Assembly: GCF_963921235.1 (NCBI RefSeq)
Contig: NC_086097.1
Coordinates: forward strand, 89,406,001-89,470,000
DNA from: Mobula hypostoma
Taxonomy: Eukaryota
Direction of reading: 5' to 3'
DNA length: 64,000 nt
A model generated the notes under the pieces. That model searched no databases. It was not told the DNA's origin and saw only the letters and a list, made by a program, of their open reading frames with translations. Each line of letters begins with the position of its first letter. The stretch's first letter is position 1. This document shows, in pieces, positions 1 to 50,665 of this stretch. A program made the position numbers and the translations under genes.

Positions 1-3000
1 CTAGGGGGACCAATATCCTGGCAGGGAGATTAACGAGGGCTACTGAGGTGACTTTAAACTAGAATGGTTGGGGGGTTGGGAATCAAATTAAAGAGGCTAG
101 GCGAGAGGAGGTTAGTTCACAACAGGGGGATGGGAACCAGTGCAGAGAGACAGAGGGGTGTAAAATGAGGGTAGAAGCAAAAAGTAGTAAGGTGAAAAGT
201 AAAAGTGGCAGGCTGACAAATCCAGGGCAAGCATCAAAAAAGGCCACTTTTCAACATAATTGTATAAGGGCTAAGAGAGTTGTAAAAGCGCGCCTGAAGG
301 CTTTGTGTGTCAATGCAAGGAGCATTCATAACAAGGTGGATGAATTAAAAGTGCAGATTGTTATTAATGAATATGATATAGTTGGGATCACAGAGACATG
401 GCACCAGGGTGACCAAGGATGGGAGCTCAACATTCAGGGATATTCAATATTCAGGAGGGATAGACATTAAAGAAAAGGAGGTGGGGTGGCGTTGCTGGTT
501 AGAGAGGAGATTAACGCAATAGAAAGGAAGAACATAAGCCGGGAAGATGTGGAATCGATATGGGTAGAGCTGCATAACACTAAGGGGCAGAAAACGCTGG
601 TGGGAGTTGTGTACAGGCCACCTAACAGTAGTAGTGAGGTTGGGGATGGTATTAAACAGGAAATTAGAAATGTGTGCAATAAAGGAACAGCAGTTATAAT
701 GGGTGACTTCAATCTACATATAGATTGGGTGAACCAAATTGGTAAGGGTGCTGAGGAAGAGGATTTCTTGGAATGTATGCGGGATGGTTTTTTGAACCAA
801 CATGTCGAGGAACCAACTAGAGACCAGGCTATTCTAGACTGGGTATTAAGCAACGAGGAAGGGTTAATTAGCAATCTTGTCATGAGAGGCCCCTTGGGTT
901 AGAGTGACCATAATATGGTGGAATTCTTCATTAAGATGGAGAGTGACATAGTTAATTCAGAAATAAAGGTTCTGAACTTAAAGAAGGGTAACTTTGAAGG
1001 TATGACACGTGAATTAGCTAAGATAGACTGGCAAATGACACTTAAAGGGTTGACGGTGGATATGCAATGGCAAGCATTTAAAGATCGCATGGATGAACTA
1101 CAACAATTGTTCATCCCAGTTTGGCAAAAGAATAAATCAAGGAAGGTAGTGCACCCGTGGCTGACAAGGGAAATTAGGGATAGTATCAATTCCAAAGAAG
1201 AAGCATACAAATTAGCCAGAAAAAGTGGCTCACCTGAGGACTGGGAGAAATTCAGAGTTCAGCAGAGGAGGACAAAGGGCTTAATTAGGAAGGGGAAAAA
1301 AGATTATGAGAGAAAACTGGCAGGGAACATAAAAACTGACTGTAAAAGCTTTTATAGATATGTGAAAAGAAAAAGATTGGTTAAGACAAATGTAGGTCCC
1401 CTACAGACAGAAACAGGTGAATTGATTATGGGGAGCAAGGACATGGCAGACCAAGTGAATAATTACTTTGGTTCTGTCTTCACTAAGGAGGACATAAATA
1501 ATCTTCCAGAAATAGTAGGGGACAGAGGGTCCAGTGAGATGGAGGAACTGAGGGAAATACATGTTAGTAGGGAAGTGGTGTTAGGTAAATTGAAGGGATT
1601 AAAGGCAGATAAATCCCCAGGGCCAGATGGTCTGCATCCCAGAGTGCTTAAGGAAGTAGCCCAAGAAATAGTGGATGCATTAGTGATAATTTTTCAAAAC
1701 TCTTTAGATTCTGGACTAGTTCCTGAGGATTGGAGGGTGGCTAATGTAACCTCACTTTTTAAAAAAGGAGGGAGAGAGAAACCGGGGAATTATAGACCGG
1801 TTAGCCTAACATCGGTGGTGGGGAAAATGCTAGAGTCAGTTATCAAAGATGTGATAACAGCACATTTGGAAAGCGGTGAAATCATTGGACAAAGTCAGCA
1901 TGGATTTGTGAAAGGAAAATCATGTCTGACAAATCTCATAGAATTTTTTGTGGATGTAACTAGTAGAGTGGATAGGGGAGAACCAGTGGATGTGGTATAT
2001 TTGGATTTTCAAAAGGGTTTTGACAAGGTCCCACACAGGAGATTAGTGTGCAAACTTAAAGCACATGGTATTGGGGGTAAGGTATTGATGTGGATAGAGA
2101 ATTGGTTGGCAGACAGAAAGCAAAGAGTGGGAATAAACAGGACCTTTTCAGAATGGCAGACAGTGACTAGTGGGGCACCGCAAGGCTCAGTGCTGGGACC
2201 CCAGTTGTTTACAATATATATTAATGACTTGGATGAGGGAAGTAAATGCAGCATCTCCAAGTTTGTGGATGACATGAAGCTGGGTGGCGGTGTTAGCAGT
2301 GAGGAGGATGCTAAGAGGATGCAGGGTGACTTGGATAGGTTGGGTGAGTGGGCAAATTCATGGCAGATGCAATTTAATGTGGATAAATGTGAAGTTATCC
2401 ACTTTGGTGGCAAAAATAGGAAAACAGATTATTATCTGAATGGTGGCCGATTAGGAAAAGGGGAGGTGCAACAAGACCTGGGTGTCATTATACACCAGTC
2501 ATTGAAAGTGGGCATGCAGGTACAGCAGGCGGTGAAAAAGGCGAATGGTATGCTGGCATTTATAGCAAGAGGATTCGAGTACAGGAGCAGGGAGGTACTA
2601 CTGCAGTTGTACAAGGCCTTGGTGAGACCACACCTGGAGTATTGTGTGCAGTTTTGGTCTCCTAATCTGAGGAAAGACATCCTTGCCATAGAGGAAGTAC
2701 AAAGAAGGTTCACCAGATTGATTCCTGGGATGGCAGGACTTTCATATGATGAAAGACTGGATGAACTAGGCTTATACTCGTTGGAATTTAGAAGATTGAG
2801 GAGGGATCTGATTGAAACGTATAAAATCCTAAAGGGATTGGACAGGCTAGATGCAGGAAGATTTTTCCCGATGTTGGGGAAGTCCAGAACGAGGGGTCAC
2901 AGTTTGAGGATAAAGGGGAAGCCTTTTAGGACCGAGATTAGGAAAAACTTCTTCACACAGAGTGGTGAATCTGTAGAATTCTCTGCCACAGGAAACAGTT

Positions 3001-3197
3001 GAGGTCAGTTCATTGGCTATATTTAAGAGGGAGTTAGATATGGCCCTTGTGATTAAAGGGATCGGGGGTATGGAGGGAAGGCTGGTACAGGGTTCTGAGT
3101 TGGATGATCAGCTATGATCATACTGAATGGCGGTGCAGGCTCGAAGGGCCGAATGGCCTACTCCTGCACCTATTTTCTATGTTTCTATATTTCTATG
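1..3197 (+). mobile_element. CR1-clade LINE, young copy (family A): end of ORF1, ORF2 (APE endonuclease + RT), (TTTCTATG)n tail; 5' part runs off the window
   Basis: 3-62 reads RGTNILAGRLTRATEVTLN* (ORF1 esterase C-terminus). ORFs 165-470, 486-902 and 915-3002 are in one frame, separated only by TAA (468-470) and TAG (900-902). Motifs NARS, GITETW, GDFN, PGPDG, YRPVSLTS, YLDFQKGFD, PQGSVLGP, FVDD. A 2-nt loss near 2958 shifts the last codons. Tail at 3174-3197. Confidence 0.96.
165..3002 (+). pseudogene. CR1 ORF2 endonuclease/reverse transcriptase with two in-frame stops and a late frameshift
   Basis: Same-frame ORF pieces with APE and RT motifs; the intact C-terminus can be read from the sister copy at 13598-14348. 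Confidence 0.93.
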
Positions 3198-3679
3198 TAC
3201 ACTTTCATCCAGGTCATTTATATACATCACAAACAACAGAGGTCCCAGCACAGATCCTGCGGAACACCAATAATCACAGACCTCCAGCTAGGATAAGTCC
3301 CTCCAACCACTACCCTGTTGTCTTATATGGGCAAGCCAGTTCTGAATCCAAACAGCCAATTCACCATGGATCCCATGATCTTAATCTTCTGGTTGAGCTT
3401 TCCATGAGGGAAGGATTTTTATCTGGTAGTTTCTACTTCTTGGCGATCCACAATCCTGGAGATGCCAGATTTGAGGCAGTGGTGAAAACAAGAGGAGCAA
3501 AGAGTTTGTTTTTAATGGGGTGTTATAATCTGGAAGGCTCAATCGGGGGAAAAATGGTAGAAGACTATTCATTAGCAGTATTCGAAGGAAAATGTTTAAG
3601 TACAACTTCAAATGTTTATAGCCATTGAATAAAGAGCAAGCAAAGTTGAACCTATTGAATAGCTCAATCAAAAATAAAG

Positions 3680-3835
3680 AAAATGCTGAAAATATTCGGC
3701 AGGTCAGGTAGCATCTGAAGAAAGAGAATAAAGTTCATGTTTCTGGTTGAAGTCTCTATACCAGAACTGAAATGTTAACTTATTTCTCTTCTCTCAGATG
3801 CTACTTGACTTGCTAAGTGTTTCTAGCATTGTCTA
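3680..3835. mobile_element. old fold-back pair of Penelope-like element ends
   Basis: aatgctgaaaatattcggcaggtcaggtagcatctga ... tcagatgctacttgacttgctaagtgtttctagcatt are degenerate inverted arms like those of the younger copies. Confidence 0.65.
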
Positions 3836-5894
3836 CTATTGGACATTCAGTTTCTGTAATTTTTTTTTGTATTTTTCATTTAATTCGATCATTTGGATCT
3901 TGGTGGGCCAAGTAGCTTCCTGTCTGCAGAGCTACATTCTTGGAAACCTTTCTGCACTTGCTGTTTCATGTCTGTCGTGTCCGTATCAGATCTAATCTTT
4001 ACTCTTCCCTAAACCCACAGAACAGTCTCGGGAATGAGTGGAGTGTTGTCTGAGAGATTTATGCTTGTGATAACCTCGATGTTTGCTGAGCTGTTTTCTT
4101 ATAATATCTTACTTATGGTGGTGCAGACATGTTGTGACCCAGAATCCAAATACCACCCATACACCGAAAAATCTTTGCAATAAATGGGAAAGGAAAACCC
4201 TCGCGTCTTCTACATAACTTGAACATTATAAGGAACCGGTCCTGATCAAATTGATTGTGAAATCATTTAAAATTTATTATAGTCATGTCCCTTTCCATCC
4301 AATTCATGAACCAGTCACTACTTCCCTGAACATGGCTTCCAGTTAAAATCAATCTTGTTCCAATTCACTTCTCCGTCACCAAAAAAACAACACTGGAAAT
4401 ACTTGGGAGGTCAGGGAGCACCTGTGGAGAAACTGAATTAATGTTTCTGTTTCTCTCGCGACTGATGTTGACTGGCCTGCTGATTATTACCAGAATATTG
4501 TTTTCATTTCATATTTCTGTGGTTTTATAATTTTCTTTCCTCAGTTTGTCCCGCTCTTTGGTTTGTTCCTTGTTACCATCTCTCCACTTACCCCCCTCTA
4601 CGTTTCATGATCTCAGCATCAAATCCACAGCCAGTGCTGCCATCATCTCTGCCCCTGAAGTAGGCAATAGATCAGAACATAGGTTGGCATCAAGTAGCGG
4701 AGTATCATTGATCAGAAACTCATTGTGTTCTGTATCTTCCTGGGTGCTGTGAACTGGTAGGAGGTACACAGTTAAGGGGTGAGGTCTATAGTACTTTGCA
4801 AGCACAAATCCACTAGTTCACAGGCAGCGCCATGAACTTTAGAGAAGTTTTATTGGGAGTTTTGTGCCAGATTTATACTCTGACTGAGGACTCACTGCTG
4901 ACAAATGGTGAGAGCTTCATTGAAACGTTTAATTGCAAAGGCTCAGTTTCTGGACACCGTTTCTGGAGCAGTGTGGGTCAGACCTCCGCTTGGAGCTGGG
5001 TGGTAAGGAGAAATTGGTCACTGTCTCAATATAGGGTCAACACATTTGGTGTTGACAGAAGTTTGTCAGCTCTGAAGGTTTAACAGACCTGTGGAGAGTC
5101 CTGTCAAATAGTTGAGAGATGTGTATTTGTAAAGTGATTGTGAGGTACCCACAGTCAGTGAAGTAACTTTGAAGCGTAATTGTTGTTACAGTGTAAAACA
5201 CAGCTGGTAATTTAAGCACAGGAACTTCCACAGACATTGGCGATGAATCTTTTCATCTATTTTCAGTTTTTTTTCTTAAAAGTCAGAATAGGTGACTTGG
5301 CCCCTAAATTCAGAGCAACCAGATGTTCACCATTCAGGACCATAGTTGATCTTTTACCTCAGCACCACTTTCTGGCACTTACCCCATATCCCTCAATGTG
5401 TTTAAGGGATAAATATTGACCAGAGCATCCGGGGGAGACCTCTGTATTTTTTTCAGAGTAGTCACCACAGACTGGTCAGAGGCAGAAGGGAGCTCAATCT
5501 GACACTTCATCTGAAATCCAGCACCCCCTCAGTAAACTGGTGTGCTAGCCTCTGAAGTCAGCCCCACGAGCTTCTGATGGAGAGGATTAGAGTCTTTCCT
5601 ATCTCGATCACTGCTGGTGCGAGTGAGATACCAGTAGTGTGTCAGGAGTCAAAGATTAGAATGCAAGATGGTTAGTCTGAGAATTATACAATCTTCATCC
5701 CACTGTGTTTAGGCTGACCATTGTGCCTACCTTTACTAATGCCAGTTGCTTGCATTGACCCCATATGATTCGATACACTGTTCATTCAAGTACCTGCCCA
5801 AGTGCTTCAAGTCCACCATCTCTCTGGCAGCAACTCATTCTAGATGTCAATTACAATGTGTGGAAACTTTTACCCCTCAAAACTCCTTTAAGCC

Positions 5895-6432
5895 TAGACA
5901 CAGAATAGAGGAACATCTCTTTTTTTTTGGTCGTCTCAAACCTTTACGGCATGAAGATTGATTTCCTTTTATCTAACTTCCAGTAACCACTCCCCTCTGT
6001 TTTCCCCTGCTGGCCCCTTCACTTCTTTTCCCTTCCCCATCCCCAAGCCTCACGACTTTCTCATTGCCTTCACCTCCTCCCTTTGATTCCTCTACCTCCC
6101 TTCCCTTTATTCCGTGGTCCACTGCCCTCTCCTATCAGATTGGATCTTCCTCAGTCGTCTTCCACATATCACCTCCCAACTCCTCACAGTATTCCCCTTC
6201 CCTGTCCCTCACCTACCTACCTTCCCCCTCTCAGGTGAATTTGCCTGTCACATGCCAACTTGTGTACCCAGCCCTCCTGCCGTCATTTTATTCTGACTTC
6301 TGCTCTGTTTCTTTCCAGTCCTCGCCAAGGGTCTTGGCCTGAAATGGCAACTGTTCATATCTCTCCATGGATGCTGTCTGACCTGCTGAGTTCCTCCAGC
6401 ACTTTGAGAGTGTTGCCACAGCTTTCCGGCAT
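5895..6432 (+). mobile_element. Penelope-like element 3' remnant (GIY-YIG C-terminus, pyrimidine-rich UTR, decayed hammerhead end)
   Basis: 5900-5985 resembles the decayed EEQHLIFRLG..QP.GMNIDFSNF ending of vertebrate Penelope GIY-YIG domains (recalled). It is followed by a C/T-rich tract and ccagtcctcgccaagggtcttggcctgaaatggcaactg...gacctgctgagttcctccagc. Confidence 0.7.
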
Positions 6433-13100: not shown

Positions 13101-13495
13101 GTGTTCAGAAAAATTTCCTTAATCAGTACATAGAAATCCCAGCTATACAGCGTGTGATACTAGATCTTCTTTTAGGGAATGAAACAGGGTAGGTGCCAGA
13201 GTTTGTGGTCACCTAGTGGTCATAATGCTATTAGTTTCAAAGTAATTGGGGAAAAGGATAGGTCTGGTTCTTAGATTGAGTTTCTAAATTGGAGAAAGAG
13301 TGATTTTGATGATATCAGAAAAGACCTGGCAAGCATGGATTGGGACAGGCTGTTTTATGGCAAAGGTGTACTTGGTAAGTAGGAGAATTTCAAAAGTGAA
13401 ATTTTGAGAGCCAAGAGTTGTATCTTCCTGTCACAGTAAAATACAAGGATAAAGAACCTTGGATTTCGAGAGATATTGAGGCCCTGGTTAAGAAT

Positions 13496-14348
13496 AAACA
13501 TAGAAACATAGAAACATAGAAAATAGGTGCAGGAGTAGGCCATTCGGCCCTTCGAGCCTGCGCCGCCATTTATTATGATCATGGCTGATCATCCAACTCA
13601 GAACCCCGCCCCAGTCTTCCCTCCATACCCCCTGATCCCTGTAGCCACAAGGGCCATATCTAACTCCCTCTTAAATATAGCCAATGAACTGGCCTCAACT
13701 GTTTCCTGTGGCAGAGAATTCCACAGATTCACCACTCTCTGTGTGAAGAAGTTTTTCCTAATCTCAGTCCTAAAAGGCTTCCCCTTTATCCTCAAACTGT
13801 GACCCCTCGTTCTGGACTTCCCCAACATCGGGAACAATCTTCCTGCATCTAGCCTGTCCAATCCCTTTAGGATTTTATATGTTTCAATCAGATCCCCCCT
13901 CAATCTTCTAAATTCCAACGAGTACAAGCCCAGTTCATCCAGTCTTTCTTCATATGAAAGTCCTGCCATCCCGGGAATCAATCTGGTGAACCTTCTTTGT
14001 ACTCCCTCTATGGCAAGGATGTCTTTCCTCAGATTAGGGGACCAAAACTGCACACAATTCTCCAGGTGTGGTCTCACCAAGGCCTTGTACAACTGCAGTA
14101 GTACCTCCCTGCTCCTGTACTCGAATCCTCTCGCTATAAATGCCAGCATACCATTCGCCTTTTTCACCGCCTGCTGTACCTGCATGCCCACTTTCAATGA
14201 CTGGTGTATAATGACACCCAGGTCTCGTTGCACCTCCCCTTTTCCTAATCGGCCACCATTCAGATAATAATCTGTTTTCCTATTTTTGCCACCAAAGTGG
14301 ATAACTTCACATTTATCCACATTAAATTGCATCTGCCATGAATTTGCC
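13496..14348 (-). mobile_element. 5'-truncated CR1 family A copy inserted antisense in CR1 family B
   Basis: (CATAGAAA)n tail at 13496-13522; translation nearly identical to the ORF2 C-terminus of the 1-3197 copy; homology stops at aatttgcc (14348). Confidence 0.95.
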
Positions 14349-14570: not shown

Positions 14571-16172
14571 GAATGAATGAATAAATGAAATTTATTTCGG
14601 TCAGTACAAACATTACAAAAAGCATAATTTTGAACAAAGATTTCATAGGACAAAATTACAACAAAAAACATCGATATTCTTTATAACAGACTGAAAGGGT
14701 GTAGGCTGAAGCTACAGCTTATTACACCTACCCCTCTTACTTATACAACAACATATTTGGTGTCAATTATAACATCAAAACAAAAAGTTTCATAATCCTT
14801 TAACACAAAATCCAATTCCAAGTATCATTTATTTACATTACACCCATTCATTTTAAATCATGTATTTTATATTTGTTCATTAAATTATTTTTAAATAATT
14901 TTTTAAACTTAAGTGTGGTGCATGCTTTTAAATTCTCACAACTGTTCCATAGATTCACCCCTCTGACTGAAATACAATGATTTTTTACATTTGTTCTTAT
15001 CCTTTGTTTTTGAAATATACATGTCCCTCCCAAATCATGTTGACTTTCTCTCATTTTAAAGAACCTTTGGATACTTTGTGGTAGCTGTCCAGTTTTTACT
15101 TTGTACATAATTTGTATTATTTTAAAATCTATGAAATCTCTGATTTTTAAGGTGTTTAGTTGAGTAAATAGTGGATTGGTTGGCTCATAATAACTTGTCT
15201 TATTTACAATTCATATGACTTTCTTTTGGAGTACAAAAATTGAGTTTGTATTTGTTTTGTATGTATTTCCCCATACCTCTACACAGTAAGTCATGTATGG
15301 GTCTATAAGTGAACAGTATAATGTATACAAAGATTCCTGATTTAAGAAATCTTGCACTTTGTACAGTATTGCAATAGATTTTGACATTTTTGCTTTGACA
15401 TAATTTATATGCGGTTTCCAGTTCAATTTATTATCTATTACCACTCCTAAAAAATTTAGTTTCAGATACCTTATCAATTTCAACATCATTTATTCTAAGT
15501 TTACTATATGAGTTTGATACATGGTTTCCAAATATTATGACGCAAACAACAGGAATTCTGCAGATGCTGGAAATTCAAGCAACACACATCAAAGTTGCTG
15601 GTGAACGCAGCAGGCCAGGCAGCATCTCTAGGAAGAGGTGCAGTCGACGCTTCAGGCCGAGACCCTTCGTCAGGACCAACTGCTGATGAAGTTGGTCCTG
15701 ACAAAGGGTCTCGGCCTGAAGCGTCAACTGCGCCTCTTCCTGGGGATGCTGCCTGGCCTGCTGCGTTCACCAGCAACTTTGATGTGTGTTGTCCAAATAT
15801 TATGAATTTAGTTTTACTTAGATTCAGTGATAATTTGTTAGTATTAAACCATTTCTTTATAATTTTTAGTCCTTTCTCCAGTGTATCCAAAAGTTGTTTC
15901 AGATGTTCCCTGCTACAAAATATAGTTGTATCATCAGCAAATAATACACATTTTAATGTCTTGGAGACCATACATATATTGTTTATATACAAAATGAACA
16001 GCAATGGACCAAGCACTGAATCTTGTGGAACCCCCCAAGTTACTCTCAAAAGTTTTGAATTCGAGTTGTTTATATGTACATACTGATATCTGTCTTCCAA
16101 ATAACTGCTTAACCAGTCATGTGCCACCCCTCCAATGCCATATCTTTCTAATTCTGTTAATAATAATTTATG
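14571..16172 (-). mobile_element. 5'-truncated AT-rich L2/Crack-like LINE inserted in CR1 family B
   Basis: Minus-strand GVPQDSVLGPLLFILYINN, LFADDT, FLGVVIDNKLNWKPHI, YCVEVWGNT; AATAAA plus (ATTC)n tail at 14571-14600; the host resumes in register (gatcagagt|ggtaatc). Confidence 0.85.
15541..15791. mobile_element. fold-back Penelope-like end (inverted pseudo-LTR pair) with 14-bp TSD
   Basis: TSD tccaaatattatga at 15527-15540 and 15792-15805; arms about 15580-15681 and 15690-15791 around an 8-nt loop. Confidence 0.9.
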
Positions 16173-17484: not shown

Positions 17485-19072
17485 GTTTAAAGTAAATTTG
17501 TTATCAAAGTACATATATATCGCCATTTACAACCCTGAGATTCATTTTCTTGCAGGCATACTCAATAAATGTCCAATAACTGTAATAGAATCAATAAAAG
17601 ATTGCACCAACAGGGCAGTCAACCAGTGTGCAAAAGCCAAACAGCCTGTAAATATAGAAAGAAAGAAAATAAAGAAATAATATTAATAATAAATAAATAA
17701 GCAATAAATATTGAGAACATGAGATGAAGAGTCCTTGAAGCTGAGTCCATAGGTTGTGGAACAGTTCAATGAATGGGCAAGTGATACTGAGTGAAGTTAT
17801 CCCCTCTGTTTCAAGAGCCTGATGGTTGAGAAATAATAATTGAAGCTGGTGATATGAATCGTGAGAAGTCCTGTCGCAAGTTTCTGATGTCAGCAGCATG
17901 AAGAGAGCATGATCTTGGTGCTGGGGTTCCCTGACGATTGATGCAGCTTTTCTGGAACAATGTTCTTTGTAAGTGTGTTCAATGCTGTGGGTGCTTTATC
18001 GTGATGGACTAGTCCATATCCTCCACTTTGTTGTAGGATTTTCTGTTAAAGTATATTGGTGTTTCCATATTAGGCTGTGATACAGCCAATCAATGTATTC
18101 TCCACCACATACCTGCAAGAGTTTGTCAAAGTTTTAGATGTCATGTTGAAACTTTGCAAACTTCTAAGGAAGTACTGGCATTGCCGTTGTTTCTTTGTAA
18201 TGCATGCTGGATCCTCTGAAATGATAACACTGAGGAATTTAAAGTTGTTGACCTTCTCCACCTCTGATTCCCTGATGAGTTCTGGTTCATGATCCACTGT
18301 TTTCTCCTCCTAAAGCTAGTAATCATCTCTAACGAAGTTAGTCCTGACGAAGGGTCTTGGCCCAAAACGTCGACTGTACCTCTTCCTAGAGATGCTGCCT
18401 GGCCTGCTGTGTTCACCATGTGTGTTGCTTGAAATTCCAGCATCTGCAGATTTCCTCGTGTTCGCGTTTTTAAAATCATCTCCTTGGTCTTGCTAACATT
18501 GAGTAAGAGGTTGTTGATGTGGCACCACTCAACCAGACTTTCAGTCTCCCTCCTGTATGCTGATTCGATTTAGCTTATGACAGTGGTGTCATCAGCAAGC
18601 TGAATATGGCATTGGAGCTTTGCTTGGCCACGTAGTTGTTACCATATAGCGAATAGAGCAGAGGGGTAAGCGCATAACCTTGTGGTGCACCTGTCCTGCT
18701 GATGTTTGTGGTGGAGTTGTTGCTGCTAATCCGAACTGACTGGGGTCTGCAAGTGAGGAAACCGAGGATATAATTACACAAGCACATTTTGAGGCCAAGA
18801 TCTTGAAGCTTATTTATTAAGTTTATAGGATGGTATTATTGAATGCCGAGCTGTATACAATAAAGTGCATCCTGATGTAGGCATCTTTGCTGTCCAAATG
18901 TTCCAGGGTTGAGTGCAGAGCCAATGAAATGTCATCTGCTGTTGTCTTGTACCGGTAGGCAAATTGGAGCAGATCCAAGTTGCTTCTCAGGCAGGAGTTG
19001 ATGTGTTTCATCACCAACCTCTCACTTCATCACTGTGGATGGAAGTGGTACTGGACAATGGTTACTGAGGTC
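17485..19072 (-). mobile_element. decayed Rex1/Babar-type LINE inserted in CR1 family B
   Basis: Minus-strand LQFAYR...DDISLALH, YSSAFN, TGAPQGYALTPLLYSLY, VNNFKFLSVIISED; tail aagtttaaagtaaatttgttatc on +. Confidence 0.82.
18330..18473 (+). mobile_element. Penelope-like end with 9-bp TSD; hammerhead core carries G12A
   Basis: TSD aatcatctc at 18321-18329 and 18474-18482; agtc-CTGACGA-agggtcttggccc-AAAAC-GTC-gact at 18340-18375. Confidence 0.85.
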
Positions 19073-44049: not shown

Positions 44050-44200
44050 CTCTGTGGCGGCCCTGACCGAGTGCATGAGGAACAAGGTCCTGGCCAAGTT
44101 CTTCAGGGAACGGCAGTCAACACTGAAGCGCTCCCTCCCTCTGGGCTCGTACCTGCTGAAGCCAGTTCAGAGGATCCTTAAGTATCATCTCCTGTTGCAG
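44050..44200 (+). CDS. PLEKHG3: PLEKHG3 coding exon (DH): [12 protein letters not shown]...[16 protein letters not shown]
   Basis: cctgcag|C ... CAG|gtaagc; 151 nt, phase 2 to 0; [13 protein letters not shown] is the conserved DH CR3 motif. Confidence 0.96.
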
Positions 44201-45479
44201 GTAAGCAAGGTGAATGGTCAGCCTATGTCAGAATCCACCCAGGGCATAACCAGCGACCTCCACCACCATGAAGGTCAAGGATATGGGCTGCCGGTAATAC
44301 TAATCCCTGTAGAGTCACCATCTTGGATGTATATGGCTGAGCCAAAAACCTGTTGCTCCCTTCTCAGAAACACTGTAGGAGTTCCTTGACCAGGGAACTC
44401 TCGTGGGTCACCTTTTCATGATCTCTTTGTTTCAGTATTATTTCAAATACAGTAGATGTCTGGGTACAAGAGTTCTGTTACTACTTTTCTTTTGGCGTTT
44501 GCACTGGTCAAGCTCTTTCAGGCTCCACTCTGATGGTTTAATTGCATTATTCGATATCCAATCCCTCCTTCAAGCAAGGACTGTGACTGCAGGAGATGCC
44601 TTTGGTGGAACTCATTGTACTTCCCCAACCAGACTACTCATCCACACCTCCCAAACGTGTGACCCATGTCACCAGAAGAACAAGAGCAGCAGGCAAATGG
44701 AAGCATCAGTGCCTTCAGGCTCCACTCCATGTCACCCATTTATTGTTTCTGCCCCATTCTGGTGGCCCTCTCGCTCTTCCCTGCCCTCGTGACCTACCCA
44801 TCGCCTCCCTCTGGCTCCTCAGCTCCTTCCCTTTATTCCACTGTCCTCTCCTACCAGATTCCTTCTTCAGCCTTTACTTTTTCCAACCCTCCCCACCCAC
44901 CTTCCCGCTCACCTGATCTCACCTATCACTGGTCAGCTTATACTCTTTCCCCTTTCCACCCATCTTCTTATTCTGGTTTCTGCCCCCTTCCTTTCCAATC
45001 CTGCTGAAGGATCTCAGCTTGAAACAGAGCTGTTTATTCCCCCTCAGTGATGCTGACTGACTTGCTAAGTTATGCCATCATTTTGTGTCTCTGTTGCTCA
45101 AGGAAATGGATGATGGTTCCTTTATCATTGTATCTAGGTCAGGGAACACCTGACCCAACAACACCAGAAGGAAGGCAACCGTTGAAAAAGGTGCTCACTA
45201 CCACTTTTCCAAGGCCAGATAGGGATTGACAATAGATAATGGCCTTGCCTTATAATTCAGTGGAAAAAAAATCAGTGCTAATATTGAGAATGTACTGAGG
45301 GAGGACTGCACCATTGGAAATGCTGTCTTCACAGAACAATTGTTTAAACTCTGCTCAACATGTCAGGTTGATGGATGCATTAGAATCCATTGAAGTGTTG
45401 GAGAGGAGCGAGGGAAATCTCATCTGCCTAGTAATTTAATCTCAGCCACAATTATCAAAACAAATCACTTTATGTGGGA

Positions 45480-45832
45480 CACGAGGAATTCTGCCGATGC
45501 TGGAAATTCAAGCAACACACATCAAAGTTGCTGGTGAACGCAGCAGGCCAGGCAGCATCTCTAGGAAGAGGTACAGTCGACGTTTCAGGCCGAGACCCTT
45601 CGTCAGGACTAACTGAAAGAAGAGATAGTAAGAGATTTGAAAGTGGGAGGGGGAGGGGGAGATCCAAAATGATAAGAGAAGACAGGAGGGGGCGGGATGG
45701 AGCCAAGAGCTGGACAGGTGATTGGCAAAGGGGATATGAGAGGATCATGGGACAGGAGGCCTAGGGAGAAGGAAAAGGGGGGGGGGACCCAGAGGATGGG
45801 CAAGTGGTATAGTCAGAGGGACAGAGGGAGAG
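45480..45832 (-). mobile_element. young Penelope-like 3' end with 11-bp TSD
   Basis: TSD tttatgtggga at 45469-45479 and 45833-45843; first about 130 bp nearly identical to 15545-15675. Confidence 0.9.
45575..45610 (-). ncRNA. minimal type-I hammerhead ribozyme motif with fully canonical core
   Basis: Minus strand AGUC-CUGACGA-AGGGUCUCGGCCU-GAAAC-GUC^GACU: stem I AGUC/GACU, stem II hairpin, palindromic ACGU helix III, GUC cleavage triplet (predicted cut between 45579 and 45578). Confidence 0.72.
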
Positions 45833-46623
45833 TTTATGTGGGAGTTTGCTCTGCACAAATTGACTGTTGCTTTATCCATCTTTTAACAGACTGTATGTCC
45901 AAAGTTTCTGCCCAGGGGAGCAGTAGAGAGGCTACCTCAATTAAAACGCAGTTAGGTAGATTTTTGCATAACAGGTGAATTCAGGATGATGGGGGGAAAG
46001 GCAGGTAGGTGGAGTTGAGAGCATGTCCAGATCAGCCATGATCTTCTTCAATGCAGTAGCAGGCTCGACTGGCCAGAATAGCCGATTACTACTCCTGTGT
46101 CTTAAGTTCTTAAAACATTTTGTTGCTGAGATGTGTTTTCAGGTATGCTGCTGTTACTGAAAGGCATTATATTAATCAAAGTTCATTCTTTTTCCATCGA
46201 AGCCTGAAGATCCTCTGGTGCGCTGTTTATTTCCGTGCCGTGAGATTGAAAATCTGCCCTCTGCTGAGTGCTAGCAACCCCTTCTGGGTTGTTTCACGTC
46301 ACTGGAAATTTTGCGTATTGAGCGTTTGATGTTTCCTTTGAACAGGTTCTATGGTGTTCCTTTGTTTCATGGTTGTCTGTGGGAAGACGAATCTCAGGGT
46401 TGTAAACTGCATACATTGATAATAAATGTACTTTGAATCTTGGAAATGAGCATGCACAAGTGAGATATCAGTGTACTACTTTTTAAATAAGAAGAGAACT
46501 GGCTGGGATGTACAATTGAAGAGGAAAAGCTGGAAGAGAAAGGAGAGCAATGTGTGTCCTGATTGAATGATGGAGTAGACTTGAGTAGCTGCATTCAGAT
46601 TTTCCTGTCTGTTCTTGCCACAG

Positions 46624-46755
46624 GAAATAGCAAAGCACTTTGACATCAACCAGGAGGGCTATGAGGTGATTGATGAAGCTATTGACACCATGACAGGTGT
46701 GGCCTGGTACATCAATGACATGAAGAGGAAACACGAGCATGCTATTCGACTGCAG
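46624..46755 (+). CDS. PLEKHG3: PLEKHG3 coding exon (DH end): EIAKHFD...[15 protein letters not shown]
   Basis: gccacag|GAA ... CAG|gtacgt; 132 nt, phase 0 to 0. Confidence 0.95.
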
Positions 46756-50095: not shown

Positions 50096-50512
50096 AGAAT
50101 AATGCACACTTCTGTTATGCCTGGTTGCCTTTATAATGTGGGAGTTTAAGTATAGCAAGCTTCTGCAAAGAGCAGTGACAGAACAGCCAAGTAATTTATT
50201 TTGCAGCAAAGGCATTGTTCAAAATACTATAGACAATGTCCCAACTCTTCAAAGCAGTGCCTTGGGATTTTCTTTACATCCACCAGAGGTTAGGCCAGGT
50301 CACTTCAGATTTAGCAGCCCCTCTGACTGTGGCAGTACCCCAGTATTGTACAGGGTGACATTTTTGCTTTGTGTTGAAGTGAGACTTGAACCTAAAACTG
50401 TCTGACTCAGAAATGTTGATAATGAATTGCAATTGGATTATACTTCAATCCACTAAATTTACCTGAGAAATTGATATCAACACTTAATAAAGATACATCA
50501 GGCCTAGTTCCA

Positions 50513-50611
50513 CAGCATTCCCTCAGCATTCCCTCAGTATTCCCTCAGCATTCCCTCAGCATTCCCTCAGCATTCCCTCAGCATTCCCTCAGCATTCCCT
50601 CAGTATTCCCT
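50513..50611 (+). repeat. minisatellite, 9 x 11-bp CAG(C/T)ATTCCCT
   Basis: Nine contiguous units; units 3 and 9 carry the T variant. Confidence 0.95.
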
Positions 50612-50665
50612 ATGCCTCAGTGTTTCTCTGTATCATAGTAACCATGATGTTCTCATCTTCCGCAG

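Follow-up and report, generated by a model that had tools for sequence, protein, structure and literature searches.

A hammerhead-bearing truncated end of a Penelope-like element, likely of the Neptune clade, in an intron of Mobula hypostoma

The 353-bp insert described here lies in a 64-kb stretch of DNA (the window, G000:C1:89406001-89470000, from a genome of 3.48 Gb). It is very probably the 5'-truncated 3' end (pLTR) of a Penelope-like element (PLE) with reverse transcriptase (RT) and GIY-YIG domains, likely of the Neptune clade, carrying the minimal type I hammerhead motif familiar from this group. Self-cleavage would probably be weak, requiring dimerisation or the protein of the element. 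The insert, its parts and its borders are as follows:

45469 to 45479, no strand: left copy of the 11-bp TSD, exact match to 45833-45843
45480 to 45832, minus strand: very probable 5'-truncated 3' end (pLTR) of a Neptune-type PLE, from identity to the full-length copy L175 and to longer sister copies
45480 to 45510, minus strand: PLE "tail" of about 30-35 nt between two preferred 3' end points of the family, from the 3' ends of young copies
45496 to 45559, minus strand: conserved 3' hairpin closed by a 7-bp helix, from MFE and centroid folds
45575 to 45610, minus strand: minimal type I hammerhead motif, from sequence, descriptor against shuffles, and conservation
45612 to 45832, minus strand: pyrimidine-rich 3' UTR part of the pLTR, from sequence
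45613 to 45631, minus strand: branch-point-like motif, pyrimidine tract and CAG directly before stem I, from sequence; copy 5' ends become denser from about here
45833 to 45843, no strand: right copy of the 11-bp TSD, exact match to 45469-45479

Read from the minus strand, the motif has a stem I of 4 bp (5' strand 45610-45607, 3' strand 45578-45575), C3 to A9 at 45606-45600, an extra A after A9 at 45599, a 12-nt stem II hairpin of 4 bp at 45598-45587, and G12-A14, A15.1, C15.2, G16.2, U16.1 and C17 at 45586-45579 without a loop III. The core (C3-U4-G5-A6-N7-G8-A9, G12-A13-A14-A15.1 and U16.1-H17) is complete, and the cut is predicted between 45579 and 45578. Helix III is palindromic, being a self-complementary 4-mer with the 15.2-16.2 pair and a duplex energy of -1.7 kcal/mol. 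An earlier note on this DNA had laid out the minus strand in the same way (stem I, core, stem II, GUC and an ACGU helix III), and the sequence confirms that layout. The note had also spoken of a canonical minimal hammerhead. The word minimal is appropriate for this PLE variant, with its 4-bp helix I, helix II hairpin and unpaired base after A9, but canonical is an overstatement, the variant being reported to cleave poorly (PMC4209133).

The 10.1-11.1 pair of the window copy is a G-U wobble (U at 11.1), in contrast to the G10.1-C11.1 pair typical of such motifs. Either register of stem II had been thought plausible, and the choice now falls on the extra-A register, since position 11.1 is C in 15 of the 23 copies sharing the window copy's 3' end and this C cannot pair with the extra A. 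The A-U register, 1.4 kcal/mol weaker and impossible in the C11.1 subfamilies, was rejected. Because C11.1 predominates in the subfamily with the same 3' end, the extra-A register is taken to be ancestral and the U11.1 of the window copy is likely to reflect ordinary CpG decay. In the other young subfamily 31 of 34 copies have U at 11.1, and a master element with the G-U pair (G10.1-U11.1) was still successful.

The exact 11-bp TSD that had been reported around the insert is present, the base adjoining the element's 3' end also fitting the element's own end, such that 1 bp may be microhomology. The 5' end of the insert lies 226 nt upstream of the hammerhead C3 (-226 in the numbering used below) and 73 nt downstream of the ORF stop, and over 350 nt the insert shares 91.7% identity with the 3' end of the full-length copy L175, whose stop is at -299. 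Over the ribozyme end the window copy is 95-98% identical to its sisters and is therefore young, while the pyrimidine-rich 3' UTR part is not conserved between old subfamilies. When the genome was searched with the ribozyme end, 41 matches were obtained, 30 of which were taken as loci (one being the window copy); most of the 29 others run upstream past the window copy's 5' end, by differing lengths, into GIY-YIG and RT frames. With the N-terminal part as query, 5 of 30 loci proved to have a direct pLTR some 660 nt farther upstream. Since longer collinear sisters exist and the insert matches the 3' end of L175, it represents a truncated pLTR end and not a SINE. The dispersed short, SINE-like retroelement of the earlier note does not hold up, 353 bp being the truncation point of one copy. 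Its proposal of a ribozyme-bearing Penelope end or a non-autonomous derivative was correct in its first half only, as the same end is joined to RT/GIY-YIG frames in many sisters and flanks the full ORF of L175; the genome search that it recommended for RT and GIY-YIG elements ending in this way did find them, complete in L175.

L175 (G000:C1:243943500-243951500, element 1546-5669) consists of a pLTR, an uninterrupted ORF of 1016 aa and a second pLTR, its two 611-bp repeats being 98.5% identical and 3513 bp apart (a 3513-bp unit). In the long frame, the first ATG comes 166 nt after C3. The single ORF with RT plus a CCHH-carrying GIY-YIG at the C-terminus that marks EN+ PLEs is thus found in this sister and is absent from the window copy. 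The RVT_1 and GIY-YIG Pfam matches of the ORF are both weak and under the curated cut-offs; its motifs include DKG, a C-x4-C-x2-C linker (residues 883-891) and two cysteines inside the GIY-YIG motif. The RT catalytic motif reads YIDN, and a tandem array of 30-bp period begins at 6272. The closest named homologue among the matches listed is a Chiloscyllium (shark) protein, 71% identical over 592 aa; most other homologues among the at least 120 matches listed are 45-57% identical, and the remaining named ones among them are a second shark record and marine invertebrates. Taken by themselves, these homologues would point to a cartilaginous fish as the probable host. A PDB sequence search with the ORF gave 0 matches at E<=0.01. 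The CX2-5CxxC linker is described as belonging to Neptune and Nematis and as absent in Penelope/Poseidon (PMC8557442). By-eye comparison with the printed rows, in which the linker is long in Neptune and short in Nematis, gives the long form for L175, and about 57 of 90 residues, counted by eye, match the printed Neptune1_Ap row. From these motifs and this by-eye match, the element likely belongs to the Neptune clade.

The ends of the copies reveal how such insertions are built. The 3' ends of young copies cluster, relative to C3, at +129 (25 ends) and in the interval +92 to +97 (23 ends), leaving a 35-nt tail between the two points. An inverted part was found in 19 of 45 young insertions in 1.4 Mb and an exact TSD of at least 8 bp in 17, which together with the tail gives the PLE signature described in PMC8557442. 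The traits of EN+ PLEs seen here are hammerhead-containing pLTRs, partial tandems, inverted partners with 5' truncation, a tail of 30-40 bp and a variable TSD. The 34-nt interval -20 to +13 holds 11 of the 62 mapped 5' ends, compared with 5 in the 80-nt interval -100 to -21 (p 0.0015 relative to a flat rate, for an interval picked after looking and with short copies favoured anyway). The density downstream of +13 is of similar size, making this a step and not a lone peak. A clustering of 5' ends at the cut site, which could have signalled cleavage in vivo, was looked for and rejected, as 4 of the 25 ends between -20 and +90 fall in +25 to +36 (p 0.28). Two copies start exactly at +28, one junction being explained by stem I microhomology and the other being ambiguous. 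In the near-full copies L177 and L178, the upstream pLTR starts at -25 and at -4, respectively. A copy that spans both sides of the cut site must derive from RNA that was uncut or had been re-ligated, which agrees with PMC11167929. The inserted templates were probably uncut, with 5' ends stepping up just upstream of stem I and not at the cut site.

The simplest reading of these ends is that the RNA starts just before stem I and that RT primed behind the first motif runs off its end. The pyrimidine tract and CAG before stem I could be an initiator-like RNA start or a 3' splice site, as a splice acceptor is in Drosophila virilis Penelope (PMC2377424). Among contigs of 7 runs, from which a rare spliced RNA could escape, no GT..AG joint at this CAG was seen in the 15 joints shown of 360, nor in a narrow stretch. 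In 239 loci, 3 of the 29 matches starting at -12 to +3 (overlaps included, two being the same insertion) are preceded by a collinear piece of the element, none at a GT donor. Two copies, L178:2064-3865 and L038, have internal deletions in which the ORF jumps to -8 or -7 before the hammerhead, and are candidate mini-elements or nested stubs. The fold-back L150:5612-5809 has as its junction a 4-nt stem I sequence common to both arms, which suggests a template switch via the stem I of the ribozyme.

The abundance of the family was estimated from a 1.4-Mb sample of large contigs, made up of 140 stretches that each cover 10 kb from a round coordinate (spread by hand and not strictly random). Strict motifs number 40 in this sample, spread over 34 of the stretches, and one of them is probably unrelated; scaled up to the genome, this amounts to about 99,000 intact motifs (Poisson 71,000-135,000). 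Of the sampled DNA, 3.5% belongs to the young family. With an iterated profile, 317 end fragments were recovered at E<=1e-3, of which 23 lie within the window, or roughly 700,000 per genome. Two further copies in the window are:

15541 to 15791, no strand: second young-family insertion, two short ends back to back, one with and one without the tail, from sequence, the inverted repeat I8 and the start points
18336 to 18460, plus strand: third, short copy of the same PLE end, from 87% identity and sequence

In the first of these, both ends begin 8-9 nt before C3 and a 14-bp TSD (15527-15540 / 15792-15805) surrounds the insertion; 8 bases at the turn of the fold-back are unexplained. The window also holds a long inverted repeat (2351-3223 and 13473-14348; I1, I2 and I6), 88-98% complementary and about 10.2 kb apart, that is either two young inverted copies from another repeat family or the product of a local inversion, and a tandem repeat, D1, of 11-bp period at 50499-50622.

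Two other subfamilies were observed. In an old A6C subfamily with its own upstream sequence, 11 of 12 pattern matches look genuine (1.46 Mb) and some have T at N7; its members are L184:8772-8932, L156:4621-4780, L164, L210, L098, L120, L129, L199, L115 and window:44996-45102. Its core change, which is reported to favour Mn2+ in a phage hammerhead, did not prevent this subfamily from amplifying. The other (L195:8060-8215, L186, L192, L217 and L159) is a separate low-divergence subfamily about 4-6% from its own majority line, differing in loop II and flanks and having the same core and stems.

Whether the motif can act as a ribozyme may be judged from its conservation and folding. Across 100 full-length ends, old and young, conserved sequence begins at stem I, the low conservation upstream being due in part to truncated copies and the profile having been seeded on this region. 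N7 alone in the core shows three common states (T in 43, C in 39 and A in 17), in agreement with hammerhead rules. Loop II varies within one subfamily with its stem held. The downstream 3' hairpin is about as conserved as the hammerhead core, with 97.6% of cells paired in 12 copies and no compensatory change, and is likely to be the recognition and priming region for the element's RT. The covariation of core and stems across copies that the earlier note had asked for was not seen in 12 copies of one lineage: 0 of 15 pairs in stem I, stem II and the 3' helix change on both sides, including 0 of 8 in stems I and II, which barely vary. The structure thus rests on its fit to the known consensus. 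In the predicted folds of the monomer, a core-burying rod at -10.8 kcal/mol is favoured over the open core at -6.8; in the rod, core bases are paired to the cleavage segment, and pairing of this kind persists in the predicted homodimer. Minimal hammerheads are reported to show no cleavage as monomers and weak cleavage as dimers (PMC4209133), and the motif of an anole PLE cleaves with protein and needs it, a C3G/G8C double change giving rescue (PMC11167929).

The insertion is intronic and antisense to a RhoGEF gene, whose transcripts carry the complement of the hammerhead. The exons concerned are:

44050 to 44200, plus strand: exon of the host RhoGEF gene on the 5' side of the intron with the insertion, from Pfam RhoGEF (E 1.1e-09) and AG/GT borders
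46624 to 46755, plus strand: likely next host exon, an in-phase continuation, from the open frame and AG/GT borders, with no informative Pfam match of its own

The sequence of these exons (DH domain) is reminiscent of PLEKHG-type GEFs. Since the window copy has no ORF and no second same-strand motif nearby, and the host transcribes the opposite strand, the copy is most likely inert.

Several other explanations must be weighed against a truncated PLE end with a weakly cleaving hammerhead. The earlier note had proposed scanning the window and genome with hammerhead models, and a strict descriptor (core, 4-bp stem I and the 15.2-16.2 pair) gave 23 matches in 800 kb of the genome and 0 in each of 10 dinucleotide shuffles, a looser core pattern having a single site in the 64-kb window, at 45575-45610. 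This shuffle control, together with the fixed position of the motif in both repeats of L175, rules out a chance match in repeat-rich DNA, the probability of which we regard as vanishingly small, and the pLTR location agrees with PMC4209133. What might have spoken for chance is that an Rfam search of the window at E<=1 returned no hammerhead, just three microRNA-family matches far under their gathering scores, and that the isolated motif is no more stable than shuffles (fold z -0.88 and 0.73). Since Rfam misses this type of hammerhead, genome annotations undercount it. It is also highly improbable that the 353 bp are a discrete non-autonomous element, such as a SINE or a retrozyme monomer, copying itself via PLE enzymes. 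In the 1.4-Mb sample 5' ends range from -3379 to +85 with no fixed 5' end common to many copies, and most of the 29 other loci pass the window copy's 5' end, each by its own length. Two sampled copies do start at -228, close to -226, but one of them (L131) is a tandem copy placed at -236 in another mapping, and beyond these two no sharp peak near -226 is seen among the 62 mapped 5' ends. The insert has its own exact TSD and no ORF, and pLTR-derived non-autonomous hammerhead repeats average 363 bp in one chondrichthyan (bioRxiv 10.64898/2026.07.22.740005), which would suit a discrete element; however, the 64-kb window holds no tandem array of a 353-bp unit, and the copy is single and TSD-flanked where retrozymes have tandem units each with a hammerhead. 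No tRNA-derived head was found in L175 by ARAGORN or in the window by Rfam, both of which a decayed head could escape.

A more serious alternative, which we nevertheless think unlikely, is that the motif has lost catalysis and persists as a relic because the PLE RNA uses it to bind protein or as a promoter element, not for cutting. In its favour are the preferred rod fold and the lack of excess 5' ends at the cut site, and hammerhead mutants of the anole element left insertion in vitro unaffected (PMC11167929). Furthermore, the A6C and fixed-U11.1 subfamilies both amplified, which weakens the view that the motif is selected for cleavage. Against a relic, N7 and loop II change between subfamilies with the other core bases and the stems constant, just as hammerhead rules would have it, the anole motif has the protein-assisted cleavage and C3G/G8C rescue noted above, and natural A6C hammerheads can be active, favouring Mn2+ (PMC7151607). 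Domestication of the window copy as an intronic ribozyme regulating the RhoGEF gene is very improbable. The position in the intron and the intact core would be in keeping with it, but the copy runs antisense to that gene, its U11.1 has the appearance of common CpG decay, and in a young copy of a family with about 100,000 intact members an intact core is expected without selection.

For the truncated PLE end favoured here, the insertion might have proceeded as follows. The GIY-YIG domain would nick the target, RT would begin at an internal position of the RNA, the tail site some 100 nt downstream of the hammerhead, copy through the uncut hammerhead and stop after 353 nt, and repair would leave the TSD. 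The hammerhead would be selected in master elements and not in the window copy. On a larger scale, we tentatively suggest, as a possibility that falls short of an even chance, that the approximately 100,000 intact copies record the replication of Neptune. The RNA would start 5-20 nt before stem I, and RT would prime internally behind the first or the second hammerhead. Priming behind the first would run off the RNA end, giving stubs of 110-150 bp and short upstream pLTRs that start at the front edge of the ribozyme. The ribozyme would be shut in the rod fold at insertion and cut only as a regulated side reaction, and hence the A6C and G-U subfamilies could have reached thousands of copies. The single locus matters little, being one probably dead end among about 100,000, but the family is a natural data set on the role of the hammerhead in PLEs. 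With its two fixed 3' end points, its 5'-end step and its subfamilies with altered ribozymes, the model of an uncut template and internal priming (PMC11167929) becomes testable in a Neptune element.

The insert belongs to a type of element already known, as both the class of its motif and the location in the pLTR have been published (PMC4209133). Minimal hammerheads occur in the pLTRs of the metazoan PLEs Xena, Poseidon and Neptune (Cervera and De la Pena 2014, PMC4209133), including fish Neptune pLTRs, and both the extra A and the palindromic helix III are described there; fugu and lamprey rows of the supplement have the same C-G-U-C at 15.2, 16.2, 16.1 and 17. Our literature search found no paper on this family in cartilaginous fishes, one file of that supplement has no shark entry, and one chondrichthyan is included in bioRxiv 10.64898/2026.07.22.740005. 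In contrast to the Schistosoma families of PMC4209133, with 7-8 bp, helix II has 4 bp here, G10.1-U11.1 is fixed in one young subfamily, and the approximately 100,000 intact motifs compare with about 4,000 in the coelacanth and 9,000 in Xenopus.

With the Neptune EN+ PLEs (Craig et al. 2021, PMC8557442) the element shares a C-terminal GIY-YIG, two cysteines between GIY and YIG, a linker of Neptune length and DKG, as well as pLTRs, 5' truncation, an inverted partner and a one-sided tail of 30-40 bp. Unlike those PLEs, its TSDs have no evident (TA)n microsatellite bias, being AT-rich but not simple repeats. The non-LTR retrozymes of animals (bioRxiv 10.64898/2026.07.22.740005) are likewise short, non-coding, hammerhead-bearing and pLTR-derived, but are defined as tandem arrays with a motif per unit, whereas the window copy stands alone, is flanked by a TSD and runs collinear with an autonomous element. 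The Anolis Poseidon element PAc (Frangieh et al. 2024, PMC11167929) resembles the present one in having a tail defined by a pair of internal start sites for RT, located within or next to a stem-loop that lies downstream of the hammerhead, and in that its templates are mostly uncut. The two differ in where this happens: the ORF of PAc starts inside stem II and its start sites lie in an AC-rich loop within the ORF, whereas both end points here are GU-rich and lie before the first ATG.
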